Assembly (NCBI GenBank): GCA_036303105.1
Contig: JAXJBF010000135.1
Location: 192-64,191 of the forward strand
Origin: Peptococcaceae bacterium
GTDB lineage: Bacteria > Bacillota > Peptococcia > Peptococcales > Peptococcaceae
Direction of reading: 5' to 3'
Length of the DNA stretch: 64,000 bases
A model generated the notes under the pieces. That model did not search any database, was not told the origin of the DNA, and was given only the letters and a program-made list of their open reading frames with translations. Positions 6,606 to 47,515 of this stretch are shown piece after piece (within the stretch, counting starts at the first letter, position 1; every line of letters begins with the position of its first letter). A program made the translations under genes and the position numbers.

Positions 6606-7472
6606 TTATAAATCGTCCAATACTGCGGCAATATCGCTGTTGATACAAACAGATTGCTTTTCGATTTCCTGAGGACAAAACGCCTCGCCGTAATTGATAC
6701 AAGCGTAAGTGGCATTCGGGTTTTTAGCTGTCATCTTCCAGAAAGGATATTTAATAATAACCGGCGTATTAGCGCCTACGCCAAGCTCCAGAAACAGAAT
6801 ATGCGAATTCTTGTGGCGGCAGATAAAATCATCGTAACGACTGGAAGCAGCATACCAGCCTTTATCCTGAACAAAGGTCATATCGCTGCGTAGGTTCATT
6901 GTCATCGGTGCTCCGCATACCGGACATTTAGGGATTAACTCTGTGGGGATTTTCATATCCTTTTGTTGGGCGACCATTTGACGGACAGATTTTTCATTGT
7001 CATAGGTTTTTTGATGGCAGGGCTTAGAGCATTGCCAAAGTCCGTAATCCCCCTGCGTATAGAACAGCCGCTTTTTATCAAAACCGGCAAGCTGAAACTG
7101 ATGATCCACATTGGTGGTAAGCACAAAATAATCCTTATCTTTTATCAGCATCAACAAGTCGGCATAGGGCTTTCCAACACCGACATCATAGCGATTTACA
7201 AAAATATGCCGCGACCACCACGCCCAATATTCCTCCAAGGTGTCATAGGGATAAAAACCGCCGGAATAAATATCCCGGATTCCGTATTTCTTATAGAAGT
7301 CTGAAAAATATCGTTCAAACCGTTCGCCATCATAGGTAAATCCTGCCGAAGTGGACATTCCCGCACCAGCGCCGACTACAATAGCGTCGGCCGTTTCAAT
7401 CTCATTTTTCAGTTTTTTAATTTGCCCCGAGTAATTCTCGATAGATTTTGTAGTCAATATCCTTGAAAACAT
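6606..7472 (-). CDS. Sirtuin, class-M-like (SirTM-type, putative protein ADP-ribosyltransferase)
   Basis: GAGAGMSTSAGF, TTNVDHQF, and FYTQGDYG where canonical sirtuins carry the catalytic His. Cys4 zinc ribbon. Overlaps the macrodomain gene by 56 nt. Confidence 0.85.
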   Translation of the reverse strand: MFSRILTTKSIENYSGQIKKLKNEIETADAIVVGAGAGMSTSAGFTYDGERFERYFSDFYKKYGIRDIYSGGFYPYDTLEEYWAWWSRHIFVNRYDVGVGKPYADLLMLIKDKDYFVLTTNVDHQFQLAGFDKKRLFYTQGDYGLWQCSKPCHQKTYDNEKSVRQMVAQQKDMKIPTELIPKCPVCGAPMTMNLRSDMTFVQDKGWYAASSRYDDFICRHKNSHILFLELGVGANTPVIIKYPFWKMTAKNPNATYACINYGEAFCPQEIEKQSVCINSDIAAVLDDL

Positions 7473-8196
7473 TAAAAATCACCTCAATTTCGCTGTGTGT
7501 TTGGGATTTGAAATCTTTTACGGTCTGAACAGCAATTTCTGCCGCCTTATCATTTGGGAAATGGAACTCACCCGTAGAAATACAGCAGAATGCAATACTC
7601 TTTACCCCGTTTTGCTCCGCCAGCTCCAAGCAGGAGCGATAGCAGGACGCAAGTGCATTTTTATCGCTCTTTGTAACCTGTTCCCCAATAATCGGACCGA
7701 CTGTGTGAATTACATACCGGCAGGGCAGATTAAAAGCAGGGGTAATTTTTGCTTTGCCCGTTTCTTCTTCGTGTCCCTGCTTTCTCATCAATTCTGCACA
7801 AGCCAGACGAAGCTGCACACCTGCAAAAGTGTGAATGGCATTGTCAATGCAGCCGTGATTCGGGTAAAAGCAGCCGAGCATTTGGCTGTTCGCCGCATTC
7901 ACAATAGCGCCGCACGCCAGCGTAGTAATATCGCCCTGCCAAAGATACAATCCCTGTTGGATCGCTTGTAAATCGGTAAGTCTCGTAACTCTTTTTCTAT
8001 GTATCTCCTCTTGCAAATAGGCATTCTGTACATCTAAAAATGCGTCATTGACAGGCAAGGGCATACGGATATTGAAAAGAGCGCGCAACAGGACTTTTTG
8101 TTCCTGCCCACTCGGTGGAATTTCGATTTTGGAATACTTTGGCTGCTCTTTTAACAGCTCCTGTATAAGAAATAATCTTCTTTCTATTTGTGTCAT
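7417..8196 (-). CDS. Macrodomain protein (protein-ADP-ribose hydrolase type)
   Basis: GDITTLACGAIVNAANSQMLG..GCIDNAIH..CCISTGEF macro motifs. Confidence 0.85.
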   Translation of the reverse strand: MTQIERRLFLIQELLKEQPKYSKIEIPPSGQEQKVLLRALFNIRMPLPVNDAFLDVQNAYLQEEIHRKRVTRLTDLQAIQQGLYLWQGDITTLACGAIVNAANSQMLGCFYPNHGCIDNAIHTFAGVQLRLACAELMRKQGHEEETGKAKITPAFNLPCRYVIHTVGPIIGEQVTKSDKNALASCYRSCLELAEQNGVKSIAFCCISTGEFHFPNDKAAEIAVQTVKDFKSQTHSEIEVIFNVFKDIDYKIYRELLGAN

Positions 8197-8197
8197 A

Positions 8198-8821
8198 TTA
8201 TCCTCTCTTTACGATCGCACGCATAGGACAGATTTCAAAACAGTTTCCGCAGTGCAGACAGTGATTCTGATTGATTACAACGGGCTTCACACTAATGTCA
8301 ATACATTTTTGCGGGCATTTAGAGTAACATAATTTGCAACCGATACATTTATCGGTTACATAATAACCCTCTTGAACTTCTTCTCTGCCGCCAAAAGCAA
8401 AATTGGCACGTTCGATTGGTTTTTTAGAAAGGTCGAACCATTCTCCGGTTCCCTCGTACAGTTGAAAAACTCGAATTGCGCTGCGAGATTCTTCCGTGGG
8501 ATAAATCTCATACATATAGGTGTTTTTATCAAACAGAGCTTTGGTATACTGCGTGTTCAGCTCCCGTACCTTACCACGCAGAGAAACTGCTGCGCTGGTC
8601 ATGGTATTTTCACCTTTTATGCCAGTCAGGGAAATATAACCTTGCTTTTTCAACCGTTTATAAAAGCTCTTTCCCTGTGCTGTGAGAAAGTATAAGCTGC
8701 TCTCATCGCTATCCATTATATCGATGGCACAAGTAACCGGCAGCCCTTGTTCATCCATCGTAGCAACAACAGTCGTATGAATTTCACGTGCGATGAATCG
8801 CAGGTAATCTTTTGCTTCCAT
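8198..8821 (-). CDS. PNPOx-like FMN-binding split-barrel domain fused to 2x[4Fe-4S] ferredoxin domain
   Basis: N-terminal PNPOx-like region. C-terminal CIGCKLCYSKCP and CLHCGNCFEICP motifs. Confidence 0.75.
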   Translation of the reverse strand: MEAKDYLRFIAREIHTTVVATMDEQGLPVTCAIDIMDSDESSLYFLTAQGKSFYKRLKKQGYISLTGIKGENTMTSAAVSLRGKVRELNTQYTKALFDKNTYMYEIYPTEESRSAIRVFQLYEGTGEWFDLSKKPIERANFAFGGREEVQEGYYVTDKCIGCKLCYSKCPQKCIDISVKPVVINQNHCLHCGNCFEICPMRAIVKRG

Positions 8822-39870: not shown

Positions 39871-40132
39871 TGGAAGACCTTCTTTCTCTTTTTTTGGATT
39901 GTGTTTTCATTATAGGCTACCTGTCCCAAAAACCCAACCTTCCTTTATTGTAGAACCTATAAAATCTAGTAATATCATCGGAAAAACACAAAAAAACCGC
40001 GCCTTTTGCAAATTTACATACCAGTCAAGAGCATAGCATCCAACTGCTGTTTTCATGCAAACATCTTACAAATCACATTACGCTCATGTGCAGTCAAAAC
40101 AAGTTGCATCATATCTATACAAAGCCTCAAAC

Positions 40133-40167
40133 AAAAATCGATCGGCAAAACAACCGACCGATTTTTG
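40133..40167. terminator. Terminator ending the azlCD-containing array
   Basis: ATCGATCGG/CCGACCGAT with flanking A- and T-runs. Confidence 0.65.
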
Positions 40168-40275
40168 TTTGAAGGCATTCCATGTGTGCTCCCCTTTGAT
40201 ATTTACAAATGGCACATTGAATATATGGATGCATGGTATCAAAAACCTAATGCCATGTATTACTCTACCTCTAAA

Positions 40276-40602
40276 TTAAAAAACCATCTGCACAAGCAGC
40301 ATGTAGCAAATTGTTCCCCCGGCAATAGATAAAAGCATTTGTTTTTTCCAACGATGCAAAACAACGACAAGGGCAATCGAAATGAATTCTGGAATACCGT
40401 GGCTGCCTGCGAACAGACTGACATTTTTCAGACAGTAAATCACCAATAGGCCGAACACAGCAGCTGGAAGCACTTTTCCAAGGTATTGAATGTATTTCGG
40501 GGTGGGTTTGCCCGCCGGGAACAACAAAAACGGTACAAATCTTGTCAACATGGTAGCCACGACAATCGTAGCAATCGTAACAATCTGTTCCGCTAGTGTC
40601 AT
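40276..40602 (-). CDS. azlD: Branched-chain amino acid exporter small subunit AzlD
   Basis: 108-aa hydrophobic protein. 4-nt overlap with azlC. Confidence 0.8.
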
Positions 40603-41315
40603 TCTTCTACACCACCTTTCTCAATTGGTTTGCGCAGGAGTGTCAGCACAGCGAGAATCGCCAGCATGGCGGGGATAATAAAATGATCTGCGCCAAAAGC
40701 AATCAGGCATACAAGGGATAACCCGATACCCAGCAATGCGCTGGTATGCTTCTTATCTTTCATCCATTGTTCCATGAAAATGACAACGAACATGGCAGTC
40801 ATCACAAAGTCAAGGCCCTCGGTATTAAAATGGATCAATGCGCCAAATATACCACCTAACGTTGCGCCGGAAAACCAATAAAAATGATTCAGCAAAGTAA
40901 CAAAGAACATAAACCACCCACGATCGACATTCTTTGGAATCTCCGCAGTGTAATTGATGGAAAAGCTCTCATCACACATTCCGAAAATCAGGTAAAACTT
41001 TTTCCAACCGGTTCCTCTGTATTTATCCAGCATGGAGACCCCGTAAAACAAATGCCGGGCATTGATCATCAGCGTCATGGCAAATGCCTGTAAGGGATTA
41101 AACGCACCCAACAGCATATTCACGGCTACAAACTCAACAGATCCAGCAAAAATTGTCAGGCTCATGAACATCGGATACAAAAAGGAGAAGCCGGACACAT
41201 TCATGTAGATGCCATAGGTCAGTCCAAGAAACCAAAAACCGGCAAAAATTGGAATCGTATGAGGGAAGGCGGCTTTGAGAGCCGGAAACCATTTGGTTTG
41301 TTGTAAATGATCCAT
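40599..41315 (-). CDS. azlC: AzlC-family branched-chain amino acid exporter
   Basis: AzlC-like polytopic protein. Starts 1 nt after the sirtuin stop. Confidence 0.85.
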
Positions 41316-41316
41316 C

Positions 41317-42201
41317 TTATCCTCCCATGCGTTTCAGCAGCTGCTTTATACATTCGCCAATGTCACTGTCCATGCAAATCGACTGGTGCTCGATCTCTTT
41401 TGGGCAAACCGCCTGGCCGTAATTGAGACAGGCATAAATAGCTCTGGAGTTTCTCGCTGTCATTTGCCAAAACGGATATTTGATAATGACAGGCGTGTTA
41501 TACCCTACGCCAAGTTCCAGAAACAAAATGCGCTGGCCGTTTCTTGTCTGTAAAAAGTTTTCGTAGCGTTCTGCTGCCCGGTTCCACCCTTCGCCCTCCA
41601 CAAATGTATCATCGGAACGTAGATTCATCGTCAGTGGTTTCCCGCAGTGGGGACATTGGGGAACAAGACCCGAGGGGATTCTCATGTCTTTTTGCGTCTC
41701 CACCATACGGCGGACAGCGCCTTCATTATCCCAGGTTTTCTGACAGCAAGGCTCAGAACACTGAAACAGTCCGTAATCTCCCTGGGTATAAAAAAGGCGC
41801 TTCTTATCAAAGCCGGCTTTCTGAAATTGGTGGTCTACATTGGTTGTGATAACGAAATAGTCCTTCTCCCTGACAAGGGACAGAAGAGCGTTGTATACGC
41901 TTTTCGGTGCGCTCATATAACGGTTGACATAGATGTATCGGCTCCAGTATGCCCAAAACTCTTCTGGTGTGTTGTAAGGATAGAAACCACCGGAATACAT
42001 ATCGTGAAACCCGTATTTCTCCTCGAAATCAGAAAAATACTTTTTGAAACGCTCACCATCGTAGACAAACCCCGCCGAAGTTGACAGACCTGCACCAGCA
42101 CCGATCACAAGGCAATCCGCATTTTCAATGGCTGCTTGCAGCCGTTCCATTTGATTCGAGTAATTTTCGATAGATCTTGTAATCGACATCCTTGAAAACA
42201 T
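41317..42201 (-). CDS. Sirtuin, class-M-like (second copy)
   Basis: Roughly 65% identical by eye to 6606..7472. Same GAGAGLSTSAGF, TTNVDHQF, FYTQGDYG motifs. Start set at the shared MFSR. Confidence 0.8.
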   Translation of the reverse strand: MFSRMSITRSIENYSNQMERLQAAIENADCLVIGAGAGLSTSAGFVYDGERFKKYFSDFEEKYGFHDMYSGGFYPYNTPEEFWAYWSRYIYVNRYMSAPKSVYNALLSLVREKDYFVITTNVDHQFQKAGFDKKRLFYTQGDYGLFQCSEPCCQKTWDNEGAVRRMVETQKDMRIPSGLVPQCPHCGKPLTMNLRSDDTFVEGEGWNRAAERYENFLQTRNGQRILFLELGVGYNTPVIIKYPFWQMTARNSRAIYACLNYGQAVCPKEIEHQSICMDSDIGECIKQLLKRMGG

Positions 42202-42320
42202 TAAACAGCACCTCCATTTCACTGTGCTCTTACCGCAGATGGTTTTTTGCAGTGGCTACGGCAATTTTTGAAGCAAGTAAATGCTCTTTCTGAGGGCATC
42301 GTATCGTCCCCTGTTTTTTG
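42125..42320 (-). pseudogene. Decayed 3' remnant of a macrodomain gene
   Basis: Reverse translation gives ..LLASKIAVATAKNHLR*EHSEMEVLFNVFKDVDYKIY.. versus ..AAEIAVQTVKDFKSQTHSEIEVIFNVFKDIDYKIY in gene 7417..8196. In-frame TAA at 42230-42232. The 5' part is replaced by the nitroreductase gene. Confidence 0.55.
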
Positions 42321-42322
42321 AT

Positions 42323-42901
42323 TTATTCAATGATTCTGCTTCTGTTTGCTTTTCTCGGTTTTGCAGCTGGATATTCGCCTTTGCAGTATCCCAGCAAAAC
42401 AAAACAGCACGCCACATAATTTTCGGGGATGTCCCATTCTTTCAGCAAAGCAGCACCGATCTCATTAGCAAAGGTTTCCTCGCCTCTTGCCACGATGCAG
42501 GAGGAAACCCCAAGGGCGGCGGCAGCCAAAACCATATTTTCTGCGCAGCAGAAGGCGTCCGGAATGCTGTACAGAAAATTTTTGGGTCCGAAGATCACGC
42601 ATACGGCAGGCGCACCGTAAAATCCGCTTTTCATGGACGGATCATCGATAATACTCGGCTGATCTTTGGAAACATAGCTTCCTGCCAATCTTGAACGGTC
42701 AAACCGGGCAATGTTTAATTTGCCGATTTTTTCGGCCAGTTCCGCATTCCGTATGCCGACGATCTTGCTTCGCTGTCCGCCCCCGGCATTGGGGGCATAC
42801 AGTCCGGCTTCTATGATGGCTTCCAGGGTTTCCCGGTCTACCTGCTTTTCTTCGTACCTGCGGATCGAGCGGCGATGCTTCATCAGTTCCAGAATGTCCA
42901 T
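42323..42901 (-). CDS. Nitroreductase-family (FMN) oxidoreductase
   Basis: RRSIRRYEEKQV..LYAPNAGGGQ.. family pattern. Confidence 0.85.
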   Translation of the reverse strand: MDILELMKHRRSIRRYEEKQVDRETLEAIIEAGLYAPNAGGGQRSKIVGIRNAELAEKIGKLNIARFDRSRLAGSYVSKDQPSIIDDPSMKSGFYGAPAVCVIFGPKNFLYSIPDAFCCAENMVLAAAALGVSSCIVARGEETFANEIGAALLKEWDIPENYVACCFVLLGYCKGEYPAAKPRKANRSRIIE

Positions 42902-42902
42902 C

Positions 42903-43538
42903 TCATTTACACCCCTTTTCGTCCCCGTGTGAGACTTTCAGGTTTTTGAAAAATCCCTCGGTGCCAATATCCACAAAAAGCGCAATGCTGCCCTTGGCAT
43001 CTGCTCGGCCTTTCATGTCCTCCACACTGAGGACATTTACGCCGTTTGTATAGAGCTTGCCCTGCGTACCGTCTACCTCGATCCTAACGTGAATCCACTC
43101 GTCCAGGCCAATGTCCGCGGGGGCCTCGTATTTTGTAATGCCCTTTGCCCGGAAATACGCAAAGGTATAGTTGGGATAGGAGAAGTACTCAACGGCATGG
43201 GCGCGCCGTTCGGGGTCATCACATCTTCCGTTGGCCGGGCGGAGATAGAAGCACTCAAACGGTCCGTCGCTTTCCGGCACGCGAAACGCAATCCCGATGA
43301 AGCCTCGGGCAAGATCCGGCGCATCCGGTAGAATACGGCTGCACACATCCACTTCAATCACACCGTTGTGAAAGTCGCAGTCAGGTACAACGGCACAGCT
43401 TCTCAGACCATATTCATTCTCCCTCACGTTCTTGACAACCCGGACAACCGGCTCTCCGTCAAGAATGACGTCACGCACAGCGACAAGGCTGGGTAATAGC
43501 GTTTTTTGGTTTATTAAAATCGGTTCTAAAATCTCCAT
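42903..43538 (-). CDS. Concanavalin-A-like lectin/glucanase-fold protein (DUF1080/LamG-like), no signal peptide
   Basis: FHNGVIEVDV..GFIGIAFRV..WIHVRIEVDG..LYTNG pattern. The ATG shares one base with the rSAM stop. Confidence 0.5.
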   Translation of the reverse strand: MEILEPILINQKTLLPSLVAVRDVILDGEPVVRVVKNVRENEYGLRSCAVVPDCDFHNGVIEVDVCSRILPDAPDLARGFIGIAFRVPESDGPFECFYLRPANGRCDDPERRAHAVEYFSYPNYTFAYFRAKGITKYEAPADIGLDEWIHVRIEVDGTQGKLYTNGVNVLSVEDMKGRADAKGSIALFVDIGTEGFFKNLKVSHGDEKGCK

Positions 43539-44572
43539 TACTTTATCTCCTTCCAACATTGGGGGTCTGGGCTGTAAAAATCGCCGTTGGTGCCTTTTGC
43601 AACCGCCGGACAGCCCCGGCAATAGGCCAGCAGCTCACATTTGGCGCATTTTTCAAACTTGGTATAGTCGCGGTATGCCTCTATCTGGCAAACCCACACA
43701 TCTGCCAGACGATCCTGAAATACGTTTCCCACCTTGCTCTCTGCCACCCGGCGGCAGGCATACACATCCCCTGTGGGAAGAATGGTAATGTGGCAGTTGC
43801 CGCAGTTGCAGCCACCGTAAATTACACCTTCCTCTGCGGAAGCAGGAATCTGGAACTCCCCGGTTTCATACTCATACAGTGTCCAAAGATGGTCTTTTTT
43901 GTTGAAGTAGGTATTACAGCCTTCCGCTTCGTATTTTTTGAACTTCTGATCGCACACGGTAAGCAGATCGCGGTATTCCTGCGGTGTCATACTGGCATCC
44001 AGATCCCCGCCGCTGGGAACATACCGGGAAAAAGCAAACACATTGGCGCCGGCTTTTACCACCGCGTCAATAATGCCCGGCACTTCCATGCGGTTTGTTT
44101 TGGAAACCGTTGTCATGATCACGCTTCGGATGCCGGCACGGTTGATGCAGCCGATTTTTTCCAGCGTACAGTCATAGGAGCCGGGCTTGCGGAACCAGTC
44201 ATGGGTTTCACGAAGGCCGTCAATGGAAAGCTGATATTTTTCGCAGCCGTAATGTTTCAGTTCGGCGCACACCTGATCGTTCAGGTGGAATGGATTTCCG
44301 AGAATTGTAAAAGGCACTTTGTGTTCATGCAGCAAATCCAATAAGTGCCAAAAATCAGGGTGCAGAATTGGATCGCCGCCTGTAATATAGAAATACGGCA
44401 GGCGATGATACACTTTGCAAAAGTCCAGGCAATTGTAAAAAGTGTCTTCCATCTGCTTCCAGGTCATGGAATCGATCTTTTTGCAGGCATCACTCGAAAA
44501 AATGTAGCAATGTTTGCACCGCTGATCACATTCATCCGTGATGTGCCACTGAAAAGAAAAATACTGCCTCAT
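43538..44572 (-). CDS. Radical SAM/SPASM peptide maturase (ACGX-system type)
   Basis: CDQRCKHC CxxxCxxC motif. C-terminal Cys-rich SPASM region (GGCNCGNC..CAKC..CRGC). Confidence 0.85.
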   Translation of the reverse strand: MRQYFSFQWHITDECDQRCKHCYIFSSDACKKIDSMTWKQMEDTFYNCLDFCKVYHRLPYFYITGGDPILHPDFWHLLDLLHEHKVPFTILGNPFHLNDQVCAELKHYGCEKYQLSIDGLRETHDWFRKPGSYDCTLEKIGCINRAGIRSVIMTTVSKTNRMEVPGIIDAVVKAGANVFAFSRYVPSGGDLDASMTPQEYRDLLTVCDQKFKKYEAEGCNTYFNKKDHLWTLYEYETGEFQIPASAEEGVIYGGCNCGNCHITILPTGDVYACRRVAESKVGNVFQDRLADVWVCQIEAYRDYTKFEKCAKCELLAYCRGCPAVAKGTNGDFYSPDPQCWKEIK

Positions 44573-44622
44573 GTTCTTTTTACCTCGCTTTATATTAAAT
44601 CGGTTTCACCGAGCTATACTTC

Positions 44623-44655
44623 AAAAATTCCCGACGAGAGAGTGCTCGCCGGGAA
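44623..44655 (-). terminator. Attenuator-type hairpin between precursor and maturase
   Basis: TTCCCGGCGAG/CTCGTCGGGAA (one mismatch) followed by TTTTT on the minus strand. Confidence 0.6.
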
Positions 44656-44682
44656 TGGTTTTAGGAACCAAGCGCTTGAGAT

Positions 44683-44865
44683 TTATTGATCCCCAGCGCC
44701 GCAGGCTGAACCGCAAGCAACAGGTTTTTCTTCTGACTTATCAGAAGCACCGCAGGCAGAACCACAAGCGGCAGATTTTTCTTCCGGCTTATCAGAAGCA
44801 CCGCAAGCAGCAGCAGGAGCAGTTTTCTCTTCCTTGTTCCATCCAAACAAATTTGAAAGTGCCAT
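44683..44865 (-). CDS. ACGX-repeat precursor peptide
   Basis: MALSNLFGWNKEEKTAPAAACGASDKPEEKSAACGSACGASDKSEEKPVACGSACGAGDQ. Five Cys, all in an ACG(A/S) context. GGAGGA RBS. Confidence 0.75.
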   Translation of the reverse strand: MALSNLFGWNKEEKTAPAAACGASDKPEEKSAACGSACGASDKSEEKPVACGSACGAGDQ

Positions 44866-45119
44866 GGTTGTTTCCTCCATATCATTTATTCAGGGAAATG
44901 CTTTCCCTCTGTGGTTCTTATTGTACGGAGACTTTTTTCTCGCAACAAGTACGCACTTTTTTATAACCCAGTCACCTTTTTATAACCTTTGCGCTGTAAC
45001 GAGGAAATCGGACGAAAATTTTATAATATTTGCTCCTACTATTGCTGCAAAAGTAAACTTAAATTATAATTTGATGTAACATTCAATTATGATCTAACAT
45101 GCATTTGGAGGTGTTGCTT

Positions 45120-45467
45120 ATGCGAACAAAAGCAGAATTACCGGAATGCCCAGTTGCAACAACCGTACAGCTAATCGGCAACAAATGGAAACTACTGATT
45201 ATAAGAAATCTTCTTCACCGGCCATGGCGGTTTAACGAACTCAAAAGAGATCTGGACGGAATCAGTCAAAAAGTATTGACCGACAGTCTGCGTTCTATGG
45301 AGAAAGACGGAATCATCACCCGTACAGTATATCCTGAAGTACCACCACGAGTAGAATATGCACTAAGTGAATTGGGAGAGACCATGAGACCCATTCTTGC
45401 TTCCATGGAACAATGGGGAACAGATTACAAAGCTTCATTGACACAAAATAATATCGATCCAAAATAA
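45120..45467 (+). CDS. HxlR-family winged-helix regulator
   Basis: CPVATTVQLIGNKWKLLIIRNL..PPRVEYALSELG. Confidence 0.85.
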   Translation: MRTKAELPECPVATTVQLIGNKWKLLIIRNLLHRPWRFNELKRDLDGISQKVLTDSLRSMEKDGIITRTVYPEVPPRVEYALSELGETMRPILASMEQWGTDYKASLTQNNIDPK

Positions 45468-45518
45468 AAGCACAAGGAAGCAATGCTTTCTATCATTGCT
45501 TCTTTGTGCTCAGACTGT

Positions 45519-45557
45519 AAAAACCTATCTTGGCAAAAATGCCAAGATAGGTTTTTC
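45519..45557. terminator. Bidirectional terminator
   Basis: AACCTATCTTGGC/GCCAAGATAGGTT with A- and T-runs. Confidence 0.7.
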
Positions 45558-45637
45558 TTCATTTGTCGCTTCTGTTGATGACATTTTCAACAAACTAAAG
45601 CGCCTGCTTTCCCAAAAAGAAAACAGGCGCTCTGTCT

Positions 45638-47515
45638 TTATTCGCCAATGGCGTTGCCGGTGTAGAGCTGGTAGTAGCGTCCTTTTTCGGCAAGGAGTTC
45701 GTCGTGGGTGCCGCGTTCGATGATGCGGCCTTGCTCGAGAACCATGATGCAATCGGCATTTTTAACGGTGGACAGTCGGTGGGCGATGACGAAGGTGGTG
45801 CGTCCCTTCATGAGGGCATCCATGCCTTGCTGCACCAAGCTTTCAGTGCGGGTGTCGATGGACGAGGTGGCCTCGTCGAGAATGAGCACCGGTGGGTCGG
45901 CAACGGCCGCACGCGCAATCGCCAACAGCTGGCGCTGCCCTTGGCTGAGGCTGTCGCCATCCCCAGTAAGCATGGTGTCGTAGCCATCCGGCAAGCGGCG
46001 AATGAAGCCATCGGCATTGGCGAGCTTGGCCGCTGCAATGCACGCGTCATCGCTGGCATCCAGCCGCCCGTAGCGAATGTTTTCCATAACGGTGCCTGTG
46101 AACAGGTGCGTATCCTGGAGCACAATGCCCAGGCTGCGGCGCAGGTCGGCCTTGCAAATCTTGTTAATATTGATGCCGTCATAGCGGATCTTGCCGTCGC
46201 TGGTGTCATAAAAACGGTTGATGAGGTTCGTGATCGTGGTCTTACCAGCACCTGTGCTGCCAACAAAAGCGATCTTCTGTCCTGGCGTGGCATAGAGCTT
46301 GATGTTGTGGAGGATGGTTTTTTCTGGCACATAGCCGAAGTCCACATCGTCAAAGACAATGTCGCCTTCCAGCTTAACCAGTTGGAAACCGCCGTCCTGC
46401 TGCGGCACTTTCCAGGCCCAAATACCTGTGGCAGCAGCGGTTTCGCACAAGTTGCCCGATGGGTCTTCGCTGACATTGACAAGGGTGACATTGCCTTCGT
46501 CCACTTCCGGCGCTTCATCAAGCAGCGCAAAAATACGCTGAGCGCCAGCCATGGCCATGGCGATGGCATTTAGCTGCTGGCTGATGTGAGCCACTGGCAT
46601 GGAAGCGTTTTTGTTCAGCGTCAGGAAGGACACCAAGGTGCCCAGTGTCAGGCCGGCATAGCCGCCAAGGGCAAAGACCGCACCAACCACAGCACAGAGC
46701 ACGTAGCTGATGTTCCCAATGTTAGCGTTGACTGGCATGGCAATGTTGGCAAAGGTGTTGGCCTTATCGGCACTCGTGCGCAAAACATCGTTAAGGCGGC
46801 TGAAGTCCTCCTTTGCCGCTTCTTCATGGCAGAAAACCTTGACGACTTTCTGCCCATCCATCATTTCTTCGATGAAGCCATTGACGATACCAAGGTCACG
46901 CTGCTGCTCCGCAAAATACGCAGCCGATTTGGCAGCAATGCGTGTGGTCACAAAAAGCATGATGACGATCATGGCAATCGTCAAAATGGTCAGCGGGATG
47001 TCGAGGATGAACATGCTGACAAAGGTGCAGACAATGGTGATGGTTGAGTTGATCAGCTGCGGAATGCTCTGGCTGATGCACTGACGCAGCGTGTCGACGT
47101 CGTTGGTATAAACGGACATGATGTCGCCGTGGGCATGAGTGTCAAAATAACGGATCGGCAGCGACTCCATGTGTTTGAACAATTCAATGCGCAGACGGCG
47201 CAGTGTGCCTTGGCTGACAGAAACCATGATGCGGTTGTAGCCATAGGCACAAAGCACACCCAGGGCATAGGTCGCAGCCAACGAACAAAGAGCACCGGCA
47301 AGCGCCGAAAAATCTGGTGATTGAGACTGGGTCAACGGCACAATGTAATCGTCGATGAGCGACTGCATGAACAGGGTTCCGCGCAAGGTCGCCAACACGG
47401 TACCAATGATGCAGAGCACAACAAGCGTAAACGCAATTTTATAATTATGCAGCACATACGCCAGCACGCGCTTCATGGCCGTAAGCTGCTGACGTGTGGT
47501 CATTGTTTTTTTCAT
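45638..47515 (-). CDS. ABC exporter, fused permease/ATPase subunit
   Basis: Six-TM domain plus GSTGAGKTT, LSQGQRQ, ILDEATS. Confidence 0.9.
   Translation of the reverse strand: MKKTMTTRQQLTAMKRVLAYVLHNYKIAFTLVVLCIIGTVLATLRGTLFMQSLIDDYIVPLTQSQSPDFSALAGALCSLAATYALGVLCAYGYNRIMVSVSQGTLRRLRIELFKHMESLPIRYFDTHAHGDIMSVYTNDVDTLRQCISQSIPQLINSTITIVCTFVSMFILDIPLTILTIAMIVIMLFVTTRIAAKSAAYFAEQQRDLGIVNGFIEEMMDGQKVVKVFCHEEAAKEDFSRLNDVLRTSADKANTFANIAMPVNANIGNISYVLCAVVGAVFALGGYAGLTLGTLVSFLTLNKNASMPVAHISQQLNAIAMAMAGAQRIFALLDEAPEVDEGNVTLVNVSEDPSGNLCETAAATGIWAWKVPQQDGGFQLVKLEGDIVFDDVDFGYVPEKTILHNIKLYATPGQKIAFVGSTGAGKTTITNLINRFYDTSDGKIRYDGININKICKADLRRSLGIVLQDTHLFTGTVMENIRYGRLDASDDACIAAAKLANADGFIRRLPDGYDTMLTGDGDSLSQGQRQLLAIARAAVADPPVLILDEATSSIDTRTESLVQQGMDALMKGRTTFVIAHRLSTVKNADCIMVLEQGRIIERGTHDELLAEKGRYYQLYTGNAIGE

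Follow-up and report, generated by a model that had tools for sequence, protein, structure and literature searches.

SirTM/Zn-Macro pairs and the two loci of the window

To our knowledge, lipoyl-GcvH-L is the only substrate of a class-M sirtuin (SirTM) that is known. Class-M sirtuins have QG in place of the HG of other sirtuins (PMC4518038), and in Clostridia/Lachnospiraceae they have been described in 'lone pair' operons of SirTM, the writer, and Zn-Macro, the eraser (Rack et al. 2015, PMC4518038; Ariza et al. 2024, PMC11490716). The targets of these lone pairs are unknown (Ariza et al. 2024, PMC11490716). The window, which is the whole stretch of 64,000 nucleotides of a Peptococcaceae genome that was analysed, has two SirTM loci, named here A and B.

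Locus A:
6606..8821, minus strand: PNPOx-ferredoxin (8821..8198), MacA (8196..7417) and SirA (7472..6606)

Locus B:
40276..41315, minus strand: AzlC (41315..40599) and AzlD (40602..40276), separated from the SirB stop by 1 nt
41317..42201, minus strand: SirB, intact class-M sirtuin (SirTM) of 294 aa, by its 65% identity to SirA and its match to 5a3a
42149..42274, minus strand: relic of a Zn-Macro 3' end, about MacA residues 216/218-259, by genome search, profile and shuffles
42209..42215, minus strand: Shine-Dalgarno GGAGGTG of SirB, 7 nt before its ATG
42230..42232, minus strand: in-frame TAA within the macro relic, read from the sequence
42275..42322, minus strand: spacer past the nitroreductase stop, without homologue in related loci
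42323..42901, minus strand: nitroreductase-family flavoenzyme of 192 aa (PF00881, E 4.5e-23)
42903..43538, minus strand: 211-aa protein with a 3-keto-disaccharide-hydrolase/DUF1080-like domain (PF06439, E 1e-8)
43538..44572, minus strand: radical SAM/SPASM enzyme of the ACGX system (TIGR04340, 593.2 bits, cut-off 400)
44683..44880, minus strand: ACGX-repeat Cys-rich peptide of 65 aa (TIGR04341, 72.4 bits, cut-off 28)
45099..45467, plus strand: divergent HxlR-family regulator (PF01638, E 1.6e-32)

At locus A, SirA overlaps MacA by 56 nt. MacA is an intact Zn-Macro, with 369 bits against NF003163 (cut-off 272) and an alignment to SauMacro (5kiv) at E 4.6e-78 that includes the zinc loop, and the gene at 8198..8821 codes for PNPOx_N (PF01243) and 4Fe-4S domains. 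An adjacent Zn-Macro gene in the same operon is thus found at locus A; at locus B there is none.

SirB is an intact class-M sirtuin

The first-pass annotation took 41317..42201 for a second class-M sirtuin gene and a paralogue of 6606..7472, and both statements hold. SirB and SirA are identical at 188 of 288 positions (65%) in a gapless alignment (E 2e-152), the SirTM match is full-length and the N/QG/R trio is kept. The best solved structure for SirB is that of S. pyogenes SirTM (5a3a, E 1.7e-66, residues 16-285), to which it is much nearer than to Thermotoga Sir2 (7e-4), and the Pfam SIR2 family gave only 22 bits, which is under the family cut-off. N121, Q140 and R195 of SirB align with the catalytic trio N118, Q137 and R192 of the S. 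pyogenes enzyme (PMC8120803), and QG stands for the catalytic HG, FYTQ140G141DYG being aligned to HIQGEYG of SpySirTM. The Zn-ribbon consists of Cys148/152(153)/183/186 and the NAD motif is GAGAGLSTSAG. Among 185,579 species genomes and a metagenome set, from which records near the genome itself were possibly excluded, the closest relative of SirB was at most 77% identical, and the sequence records searched had no exact-protein entry for it. With the nearest relative at 76% protein identity, synonymous sites are saturated.

Locus B is the tail of a conserved redox operon

SirB sits in a tightly packed array of seven co-directional genes in which the one strong terminator-like hairpin (40173..40126) comes after AzlD. 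The genes for the TIGR04341 peptide and the TIGR04340 radical SAM enzyme are 110 nt apart. The nitroreductase is 76% identical to that of locus L107 and 62-68% identical to those of L057, L070, L075, L092 and L119, all of which lie 5' of a SirTM gene, and the DUF1080-like gene has a 48% identical homologue in the equivalent position of L080. Locus B is the tail of a conserved ACGX-peptide/radical-SAM/flavoreductase operon and not a stand-alone macro/sirtuin unit.

It had been noted earlier that a flavoenzyme lies directly upstream at both loci, and the families named are right, PF00881 at locus B and PNPOx_N with 4Fe-4S at locus A. This is a true recurring feature, since among 115 related loci 55 have a homologue of the nitroreductase or of PNPOx-ferredoxin 5' of SirTM, and none of 96 has one 3' of it. 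The likeness that was drawn to the flavoenzymes (LLM/OYE) of the Staphylococcus/Streptococcus operon agrees with the literature (PMC4518038). What did not stand is that the nitroreductase has replaced the 5' part of the macro gene, because it is a native gene just 5' of macro in L057, L080, L089 and L092.

A decayed Zn-Macro 3' end lies upstream of SirB

When the whole genome was searched with MacA, a match was obtained at 42149..42274 on the minus strand, where MacA residues 218-259 align at 62% identity with one TAA (E 4.8e-10). Of this relic 42149..42201 is shared with the first 18 codons of SirB and 42202..42274 is non-coding. The first-pass annotation had read the 120 nt upstream of SirB as the tail of the macrodomain protein, and the decayed 3' end is real, as are the peptides quoted for it (ASKIAVATAKNHLR, the stop and then EHSEMEVLFNVFKDVDYKIYRKLLESN where the macro frame runs into the sirtuin start, against AAEIAVQTVKDFKSQTHSEIEVIFNVFKDIDYKIYRELLGAN before the stop of MacA) and the TAA, which lies in the macro frame at 42232..42230 (-). 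Its extent, however, was overstated. The robust macro similarity covers about 72 nt 5' of the SirB ATG (42202..42273), the DNA-level likeness to L092 (blastn) reaches 66 nt 5' of the ATG and the macro profile envelope reaches 42301 by way of a 3-codon insertion, so that the relic makes up about 70-100 of the 121 nt.

Of the 17 residues quoted earlier, 12 lie within the sirtuin ORF and the other five on its Shine-Dalgarno sequence, as they would if there were no relic and the similarity came just from the ribosome-binding site and the overlapping first codons; in L013, L045 and L051 these are indeed the sole remnant. For this reason profile scoring was restricted to the 121 nt of intergenic DNA (42202..42322), using an HMM built on the corresponding part of 58 further Zn-Macros, MacA not among them, and 5000 shuffles in six frames as the null. 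The intergenic DNA scored 17.4 bits in one forward frame, whereas the best of the shuffles scored 11.6, so that none of the 5000 equalled it. Upon removal of the 21 or 30 nt beside the ATG the same frame still gave 8.0 or 7.0 bits, which 8 or 11 of the 5000 shuffles equalled, i.e., the signal has a p of about 0.002 without the ribosome-binding region, and the blastn match to L092 also speaks against a similarity confined to that region. The alignment proposed in the first-pass annotation thus shows similarity beyond the sirtuin 5' overlap, with an upstream score outside the shuffle distribution, and it is hardly credible that no relic is there. The DNA upstream of SirB is a true decayed Zn-Macro 3' end.

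The relic is at best 48% identical to intact macros (median 35%) compared to a median of 56% among the intact ones, which indicates that it is decaying, and it is more diverged than any intact macro copy. What remains at locus B is about 18% of the gene, its 3' end, about 80% having been lost; the zinc loop GC..NH.CIDN (MacA residues ~108-118) lies within the deleted part and is missing. The relic with its TAA beside SirB shows that SirTM/Zn-Macro linkage was once present at locus B. The genome is a draft of 144 contigs, and in a draft or MAG-like assembly a macro gene that was collapsed or passed over could in principle look like a loss. But the junction is mid-way along a 65-kb contig, the stop, the 3-codon indel and the extra divergence are beyond what a collapse creates, and similar relics occur in independent assemblies, all of which makes an assembly artefact exceedingly improbable.

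The 121-nt gap

From the nitroreductase stop to the SirTM ATG there are about 750 nt in the intact relatives L057, L080, L089 and L092 and 121 nt here, which means that about 630 nt have been lost by internal deletion. At the DNA level nothing resembling 42268..42322 was found among the 160 related loci compared, and among the sequences compared no other lineage has the nitroreductase/relic junction. Up to its stop the 3' end of the nitroreductase gene matches L107 at 80.6%, and many loci match the junction of the macro 3' end and the SirTM 5' end at 75-85%. The spacer contains the beginning of a 26-codon ORF (42299..42219, MPSERAFTCFKNCRSHCKKPSAVRAQ) with AGGGGA 7 nt before its ATG. The ATG at 42299 (MPSERAF...) was considered as the old macro start but found no support: a profile of 33 macro N-termini gave -2.6 bits in that frame, and 1012 of 5000 shuffles equalled or exceeded the best real frame.

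The gap might instead be functional, as a leader RNA or by coding for a small peptide, either the 26-codon ORF or MEVLF... from 42217. The AGGGGA would fit such a function, and the stop of the small ORF, 17 nt before the SirB ATG, could feed ribosomes to SirB. However, the gap folds no better than its shuffles (z -0.23) and has no Rfam match, the Rfam search of 40000..46000 having returned two sub-threshold Listeria sRNA matches near 45400 and nothing else, the spacer is without DNA-level homologues in the 160 loci, and the small ORF is unlike macro N-termini or anything conserved. A functional gap is hence very unlikely.

Loss of the macro gene beside SirTM is recurrent

On the SirTM tree (93 tips) there are at least 14 changes between intact and lost macro. 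A graded series of decay was observed in relatives: L058 has a frameshift, L054 an internal deletion and L055 residues 199-259 only, L013 and L051 retain '..EVIF' and L045 'KVIF', and L075, L067 and L116 retain nothing. Independent losses elsewhere end at the same place as the relic of locus B. The macro 3' end is retained because the sirtuin's Shine-Dalgarno sequence and first codons lie in it; the bases of the SirB Shine-Dalgarno are the 'EV' codons of the macro tail ...EVIF in intact relatives. Loss of macro beside SirTM is recurrent, ordinary decay. A deletion event in common with G013/L013 and L045, the nearest relatives that lack macro, was considered and rejected, as SirB (winB) does not group with them in the tree, what is left of their macro genes is shorter and different genes lie upstream. 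That locus B arose from locus A by duplication within this genome is compatible with the AU test, which did not reject a winA+winB clade (p 0.8); 40 of 94 inner branches in the backbone of the quick tree are open.

Proposed history of locus B

In L080 the intact order is peptide, radical SAM, DUF1080-like, nitroreductase, macro and SirTM, and in L057, L089 and L092 it is radical SAM, nitroreductase, macro and SirTM. The ancestral operon would have had the ACGX Cys-repeat peptide, the radical-SAM/SPASM enzyme, a flavin reductase or two (nitroreductase, PNPOx-ferredoxin or both), Zn-Macro and SirTM, in that order. About 630 nt of Zn-Macro, including the zinc loop and the entire catalytic core, would then have been lost in place, which would leave about 24 last macro codons before the sirtuin start and the 18 codons shared with the sirtuin. 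We give a probability of roughly 80% to this reading, in which locus B is a copy, now decayed, of an operon conserved among Clostridia, the macro gene having been deleted in place and the writer kept. No orthologous locus with an intact macro was found above 77% identity in genome and metagenome contigs, where records near the genome itself were possibly excluded.

Alternatively, the relic may have come with the sirtuin, SirTM and about 100 nt of macro having been copied or recombined to a place behind the nitroreductase of an ACGX operon with no deletion in place. Locus B is a mosaic, the radical SAM enzyme being 86% identical to that of L045, the peptide, radical SAM enzyme and nitroreductase 76-78% identical to those of L107 and SirB 76% identical to that of L044; the 48 nt at 42275..42322 are without homologue; and L066, L079 and L112 likewise have AzlC after SirTM, with AzlC 84-85% identical. 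Yet the intact adjacency of nitroreductase, macro and SirTM is widespread and the gene order of L080 is that of locus B, so that a single deletion is the shorter path, and the graded decay in independent genomes is decay in place. We consider such copying or recombination unlikely and favour the in-place deletion.

Erasers elsewhere and the fate of SirB

The earlier statement that this copy has lost its eraser is right in cis at locus B, but the genome keeps two intact Zn-Macros, MacA and one on contig C94, along with seven SirTM-like genes. Both Zn-Macros pass the NF003163 cut-off and one is unlinked to any sirtuin. Erasure of the SirB mark in trans is therefore plausible; reversal, if needed, might be carried out by MacA, which is 34 kb off, and by the unlinked Zn-Macro on C94. 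However, the selectivity for protein substrates varies among Zn-Macros (Ariza et al. 2024, PMC11490716), and therefore a paralogous macro need not reverse the mark made by SirB. A Zn-Macro above the cut-off was present in 10 of 11 genomes of the same genus, the best SirTM match being without an adjacent macro in 9, and in the one-contig genome G003 SirTM and Zn-Macro are 115-297 kb apart. Unlinked writer and eraser are thus the usual state in this genus. Of five other genomes with a macro-less SirTM locus, three have a Zn-Macro elsewhere, and in one (G064), the assembly of which may be incomplete, no Zn-Macro was found, which makes it possible that SirTM persists without any eraser.

This leads to the question whether SirB itself is dying, that is, an inactive writer without eraser on its way to loss. 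Its cis partner is gone, the SirTM family is defined by macro linkage (PMC4518038) and the many paralogues in the genome could make it redundant. Against this, SirB has an open frame of 294 codons with its full set of catalytic and zinc residues, the Shine-Dalgarno is intact, the spacing to AzlC is 1 nt, and intact macro-less SirTMs persist genus-wide and in many other lineages, so that we regard a dying SirB as quite improbable. From the conserved residues, the tight packing and the absence of a comparable hairpin before AzlD, we infer that SirB is still made and ADP-ribosylates a target; its predicted class is that of a protein ADP-ribosyltransferase that lacks deacylase activity, and it is presumed to have retained this activity.

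What these data mean is that a writer can persist after the eraser beside it has gone, that this loss recurs with a predictable footprint, and that throughout the genus the two genes routinely lie apart. The pair forms the end of an operon with specific flavoreductases and a Cys-repeat peptide system in many gut Clostridia, and this position gives a short list of candidate SirTM substrates. The candidates are the radical-SAM-modified Cys/Asp-rich peptide and the adjacent nitroreductase or PNPOx-ferredoxin. A tentative and, in our opinion, doubtful generalization is that SirTM/Zn-Macro could be a portable add-on for thiol/flavin redox operons, that in gut Clostridia its substrate could be a component of the ACGX module, and that erasers could be pooled in trans. 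If so, an ACGX-module substrate would mirror lipoyl-GcvH-L in Staphylococcus, and the pooling of erasers, with seven SirTM-like genes and two Zn-Macros, would explain how macro is repeatedly lost in cis while the writer stays intact.

Comparison with known systems

With the lone SirTM/Zn-Macro pairs SirB shares the full-length alignment to S. pyogenes SirTM, the QG and the N/Q/R trio. Locus A shows the pair in its classic form, with its 56-nt overlap and a Zn-Macro over the NF003163 cut-off, whereas locus B no longer has the linkage that defines the pairs and retains just the 3' relic of about 18%. The extended operon of Staphylococcaceae/Lactobacillales consists of LLM, OYE, GcvH-L, Zn-Macro and SirTM together with LplA2, and it resembles the operon described here in having the writer and eraser at its end, flavin oxidoreductases, a small thiol carrier with a dedicated modifying enzyme, and a link to a stress-type regulator. 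It differs in that locus B has no GcvH-L or LplA2: PF01597 and PF21948 were found in the genome on contig C53 only, at ~78 and 81 kb, and not in the window, and these sole GcvH and LplA genes are 21-25 kb from the SirTM paralogue of C53 itself. The flavoenzymes also differ, LLM (PF00296) and OYE (PF00724) there and PF00881 and PF01243 with Fer4 (4Fe-4S) here, and the small Cys-rich partner here is an ACGX-repeat peptide with a radical-SAM/SPASM enzyme. The peptide and the enzyme of locus B are well over the curated cut-offs of the ACGX system (TIGR04340 rSAM_ACGX and TIGR04341 target_ACGX), a family defined by bioinformatics only. Our literature search found no paper on ACGX or linking it to sirtuins or macrodomains, and nothing relevant on SirTM with nitroreductase or radical SAM. 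The relic is the same as others that are kept by overlap with the start of the next gene in ordinary operon decay, what is retained being the Shine-Dalgarno and the first codons; it is ordinary gene decay with no importance of its own, and it is the context, a redox operon with a SirTM, that is moderately novel.

Identity of SirB and of the locus A partner

SirB (294 aa; 41317..42201, minus strand) is by sequence and motifs a class-M sirtuin (SirTM), a putative ADP-ribosylating writer. When it was compared with the sirtuin at 6606..7472, 188 of 288 residues (65%) were identical without a gap (E 2e-152), and its closest solved structure was that of S. pyogenes SirTM, 5a3a (E 1.7e-66, residues 16-285), followed by 8rsn, a 599-aa protein whose N-terminal half resembles MacA and whose C-terminal half resembles SirB. 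Scores on canonical Sir2/CobB models were only marginal. In class-M sirtuins the catalytic HG is replaced by QG (PMC4518038), and SirB has QG where HG is expected; the equivalents of the SirTM catalytic trio N118/Q137/R192 (PMC8120803) are N121, Q140-G141, and R195, and SirB also retains all four cysteines of the zinc ribbon and the NAD motif GAGxS. The identity, the 5a3a match and these motifs uphold the first-pass annotation of the gene as a second class-M-like sirtuin, a paralogue of 6606..7472; that SirB is itself a dying gene is quite unlikely. MacA (7417..8196), the macro partner at locus A, is a bona fide zinc-macrodomain protein (Zn-Macro): it scored 369 bits on NF003163 (cut-off 272), and its match to SauMacro, 5kiv (E 4.6e-78), takes in the zinc loop.

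Organization of locus B

Locus B is a tightly packed co-directional array, listed here in its direction of reading.

Features of locus B
45099..45467, divergent, HxlR regulator
44880..44683, minus strand, ACGX-repeat peptide (TIGR04341, 72 bits)
44572..43538, minus strand, ACGX radical-SAM/SPASM enzyme (TIGR04340, 593 bits)
43538..42903, minus strand, DUF1080-like protein
42901..42323, minus strand, nitroreductase
42322..42202, minus strand, gap bearing the macro relic
42215..42209, minus strand, Shine-Dalgarno sequence of SirB (GGAGGTG)
42201..41317, minus strand, SirB
41315..40599, minus strand, AzlC
40602..40276, minus strand, AzlD
40173..40126, strong terminator-like hairpin, end of the array

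Just two gaps of any size interrupt the array, the one bearing the relic and the 110 nt between the peptide and radical-SAM genes. The radical-SAM stop and the DUF1080-like start overlap as TAATG (43536..43540), and a single nucleotide separates the DUF1080-like stop from the nitroreductase start and the SirB stop from AzlC; such tight packing is consistent with translational coupling. The ACGX peptide (44683..44880, minus strand) carries three C-x3-D units (CGASD, CGASD, CGAGD), whose spacing resembles that of the thioether sites (Cys-X3-Asp) in ranthipeptides of the PapB type. The radical-SAM enzyme falls well short of the PapB model's cut-off, with 65 bits against 340. AzlC also lies downstream of SirTM in the related loci L066 (5914-6594), L079 (5913-6593), and L112 (2418-3098). 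The AzlC of the window (40599..41315) is 84-85% identical to these and the adjoining sirtuins are 68-69% identical, and because the AzlC identity far exceeds that of the sirtuins this hints that the SirTM-AzlCD junction is conserved or exchanged.

The macro relic upstream of SirB

Between the nitroreductase stop (42325..42323) and the SirB ATG (42201) there are 121 nt (42202..42322). In the macro frame of intact loci they read RCPQKEHLLASKIAVATAKNHLR, a stop (TAA at 42232..42230), EHSEMEVLF and, from the sirtuin ATG onward, NVFKDVDYKIYRKLL; the MacA counterpart is HFPNDKAAEIAVQTVKDFKSQTHSEIEVIF before the sirtuin ATG and NVFKDIDYKIYRELL after it. With MacA as a blind query over the entire 2.59-Mb genome this site (42149..42274) was found at E 4.8e-10, over MacA residues 218-259, with 62% identity and one TAA. 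The match first quoted lay mostly within the sirtuin ORF or on the Shine-Dalgarno sequence, and the intergenic DNA was therefore scored alone, against a profile of 58 other Zn-Macros from which MacA was left out. It scored 17.4 bits, whereas the highest score among 5000 shuffles over six frames was 11.6; once the ATG-proximal 21 or 30 nt had been cut away, this frame still scored 8.0 or 7.0 bits, a level that only 8 or 11 of 5000 shuffles attained. The similarity is therefore not limited to the sirtuin 5' overlap, and the genome search, the profile scores and the TAA together substantiate the decayed macro C-terminal remnant that had been proposed; that there is no relic at all is barely credible. 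The ATG at 42299 was considered as the old macro start codon and no support for it was found. Over 25 columns the relic is at best 48% identical to intact macros (median 35%) whereas these have a median identity of 56% among themselves; the relic is more diverged than functional copies, which fits relaxed constraint. It is very unlikely that the gap is instead a functional leader or a small ORF, as folding of its RNA gave no structure signal (z -0.23) and it had no match in Rfam.

Origin and recurrence of the macro loss

Related loci were drawn from species genomes and from metagenomes, 80 from each. Of these, 115 extend 2.8 kb or more upstream, and in 94 of the 115 an intact macro gene lies just upstream of SirTM, usually overlapping the SirTM start; in several the nitroreductase stands directly before the macro. 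The order is radical-SAM, nitroreductase, macro, SirTM in L057, L089, and L092; nitroreductase, PNPOx-ferredoxin, macro, SirTM in L063, L069, L070, L073, and L074; and in L080 peptide, radical-SAM, DUF1080-like, nitroreductase, macro, SirTM, which is the window's own order with the macro intact. The nitroreductase is thus the upstream neighbour of the macro gene in intact loci, and the proposal that it replaced the macro 5' part was wrong. Since the distance from nitroreductase stop to SirTM ATG is about 750 nt in those macro-bearing loci and 121 nt here, about 630 nt of the macro gene, four fifths of it with the zinc loop included, are missing. At the DNA level the nitroreductase 3' end is 80.6% identical to L107 up to the stop and the macro-3'/SirTM-5' junction is 75-85% identical to dozens of loci; the 48 nt between them match nothing among the loci compared, and because of this the junction is private to this lineage within the sample. 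That it is an assembly artefact is highly improbable. A relic that came along with an inserted sirtuin is unlikely, set beside the intact order of L080; loci A and B may be in-genome duplicates, a grouping that the AU test did not reject (p 0.8) on a tree with a poorly resolved backbone.

Other gene orders were also seen. In L107 (2508..2948) and L093 (2926..3255) a PCC-domain protein (PF03479, E 7e-19) separates the nitroreductase from the SirTM/macro genes; L107 has SirTM first and macro downstream; and L083, L119, and L068 have an extra conserved ORF of about 950 nt between the nitroreductase or PNPOx gene and macro, its translation starting MI.NTGMRTDIPAFYS.WFMNR. L083 (titled Alistipes senegalensis) and L115 (Prevotella sp.) are from Bacteroidota-labelled MAGs, but their SirTM sequences nest among those of Ruminococcus/Butyrivibrio, apparently through binning contamination or lateral transfer.

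Examples of each step in this decay occur in other genomes.

Stages of macro decay in related loci
L058, frameshift
L054, internal deletion
L055, residues 199-259 only
L013/L047 and L051, '..EVIF' alone
L045, 'KVIF' alone, nitroreductase stop seven codons upstream of the SirTM ATG
L075, L067, and L116, no remnant

The longest-lasting piece is always that bearing the sirtuin's Shine-Dalgarno sequence and first codons. On a SirTM tree of 93 tips an intact macro is nearby in 65 and absent in 28, requiring at least 14 changes of state, with the backbone poorly resolved. The relic at locus B is ordinary operon decay, and what is of interest is that SirTM writers are orphaned recurrently.

Candidate erasers elsewhere in the genome

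The genome has seven SirTM-like genes (two on the window's contig, one on C53, three in tandem on C124, and one on C67), with QG in six and EG in one, besides a canonical CobB fragment. The five outside the window (C124:12708-15473, C67:20194-21075, and C53:56406-57305) all have TTN/TSN, QG in four and EG in C124c, and all lack a neighbouring macro; across the genus the C53 copy is kept without one. There are two intact Zn-Macros, MacA and an orphan (C94:41283-42059, L010 1492..2331, minus strand; 350 bits on NF003163) with no sirtuin near it. The orphan adjoins a small divergent ORF that is MarR-like by eye only. Unlinked Zn-Macros similar to it are present in same-genus genomes. Of 11 same-genus genomes, 10 have a Zn-Macro above the curated cut-off, some matches with one stop by the search's count, and in 9 of these genomes the best SirTM match has no adjacent macro. 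In the single-contig genome G003 SirTM and Zn-Macro are 115-297 kb apart. Among five further genomes in which a SirTM locus lacks its macro, three have a Zn-Macro elsewhere, one has a partial match and one has none. SirB has thus lost its eraser in cis, as had been claimed, with two intact Zn-Macros elsewhere in the genome. Because of these and of those in other macro-less genomes, erasure of the SirB mark in trans is plausible; we only infer it, since Zn-Macros differ in substrate selectivity (PMC11490716). What matters here is that writer and eraser are routinely unlinked in this genus.

Comparison with known SirTM operons

Homologues of the window's nitroreductase or PNPOx-ferredoxin lie upstream of SirTM, on the same strand within 2.8 kb, in 55 of 115 loci, which cover several families and are not phylogenetically independent, and downstream in 0 of 96. 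The flavoenzyme noticed again directly upstream therefore reflects a real, polar and conserved linkage. Our literature search, which covered few subscription journals, found no paper on the ACGX system and none tying SirTM to nitroreductase or radical-SAM genes. GcvH and LplA are on another contig only, not at the window. The flavoenzyme linkage here has an analogue, though no homologue, in LLM and OYE of the Staphylococcus/Streptococcus SirTM operon (PMC4518038, PMC11490716). The Clostridial operon type provides a short list of candidate SirTM substrates and, with the pair placed behind flavoreductases and the ACGX peptide system, is a novel version of the extended SirTM operon already known.
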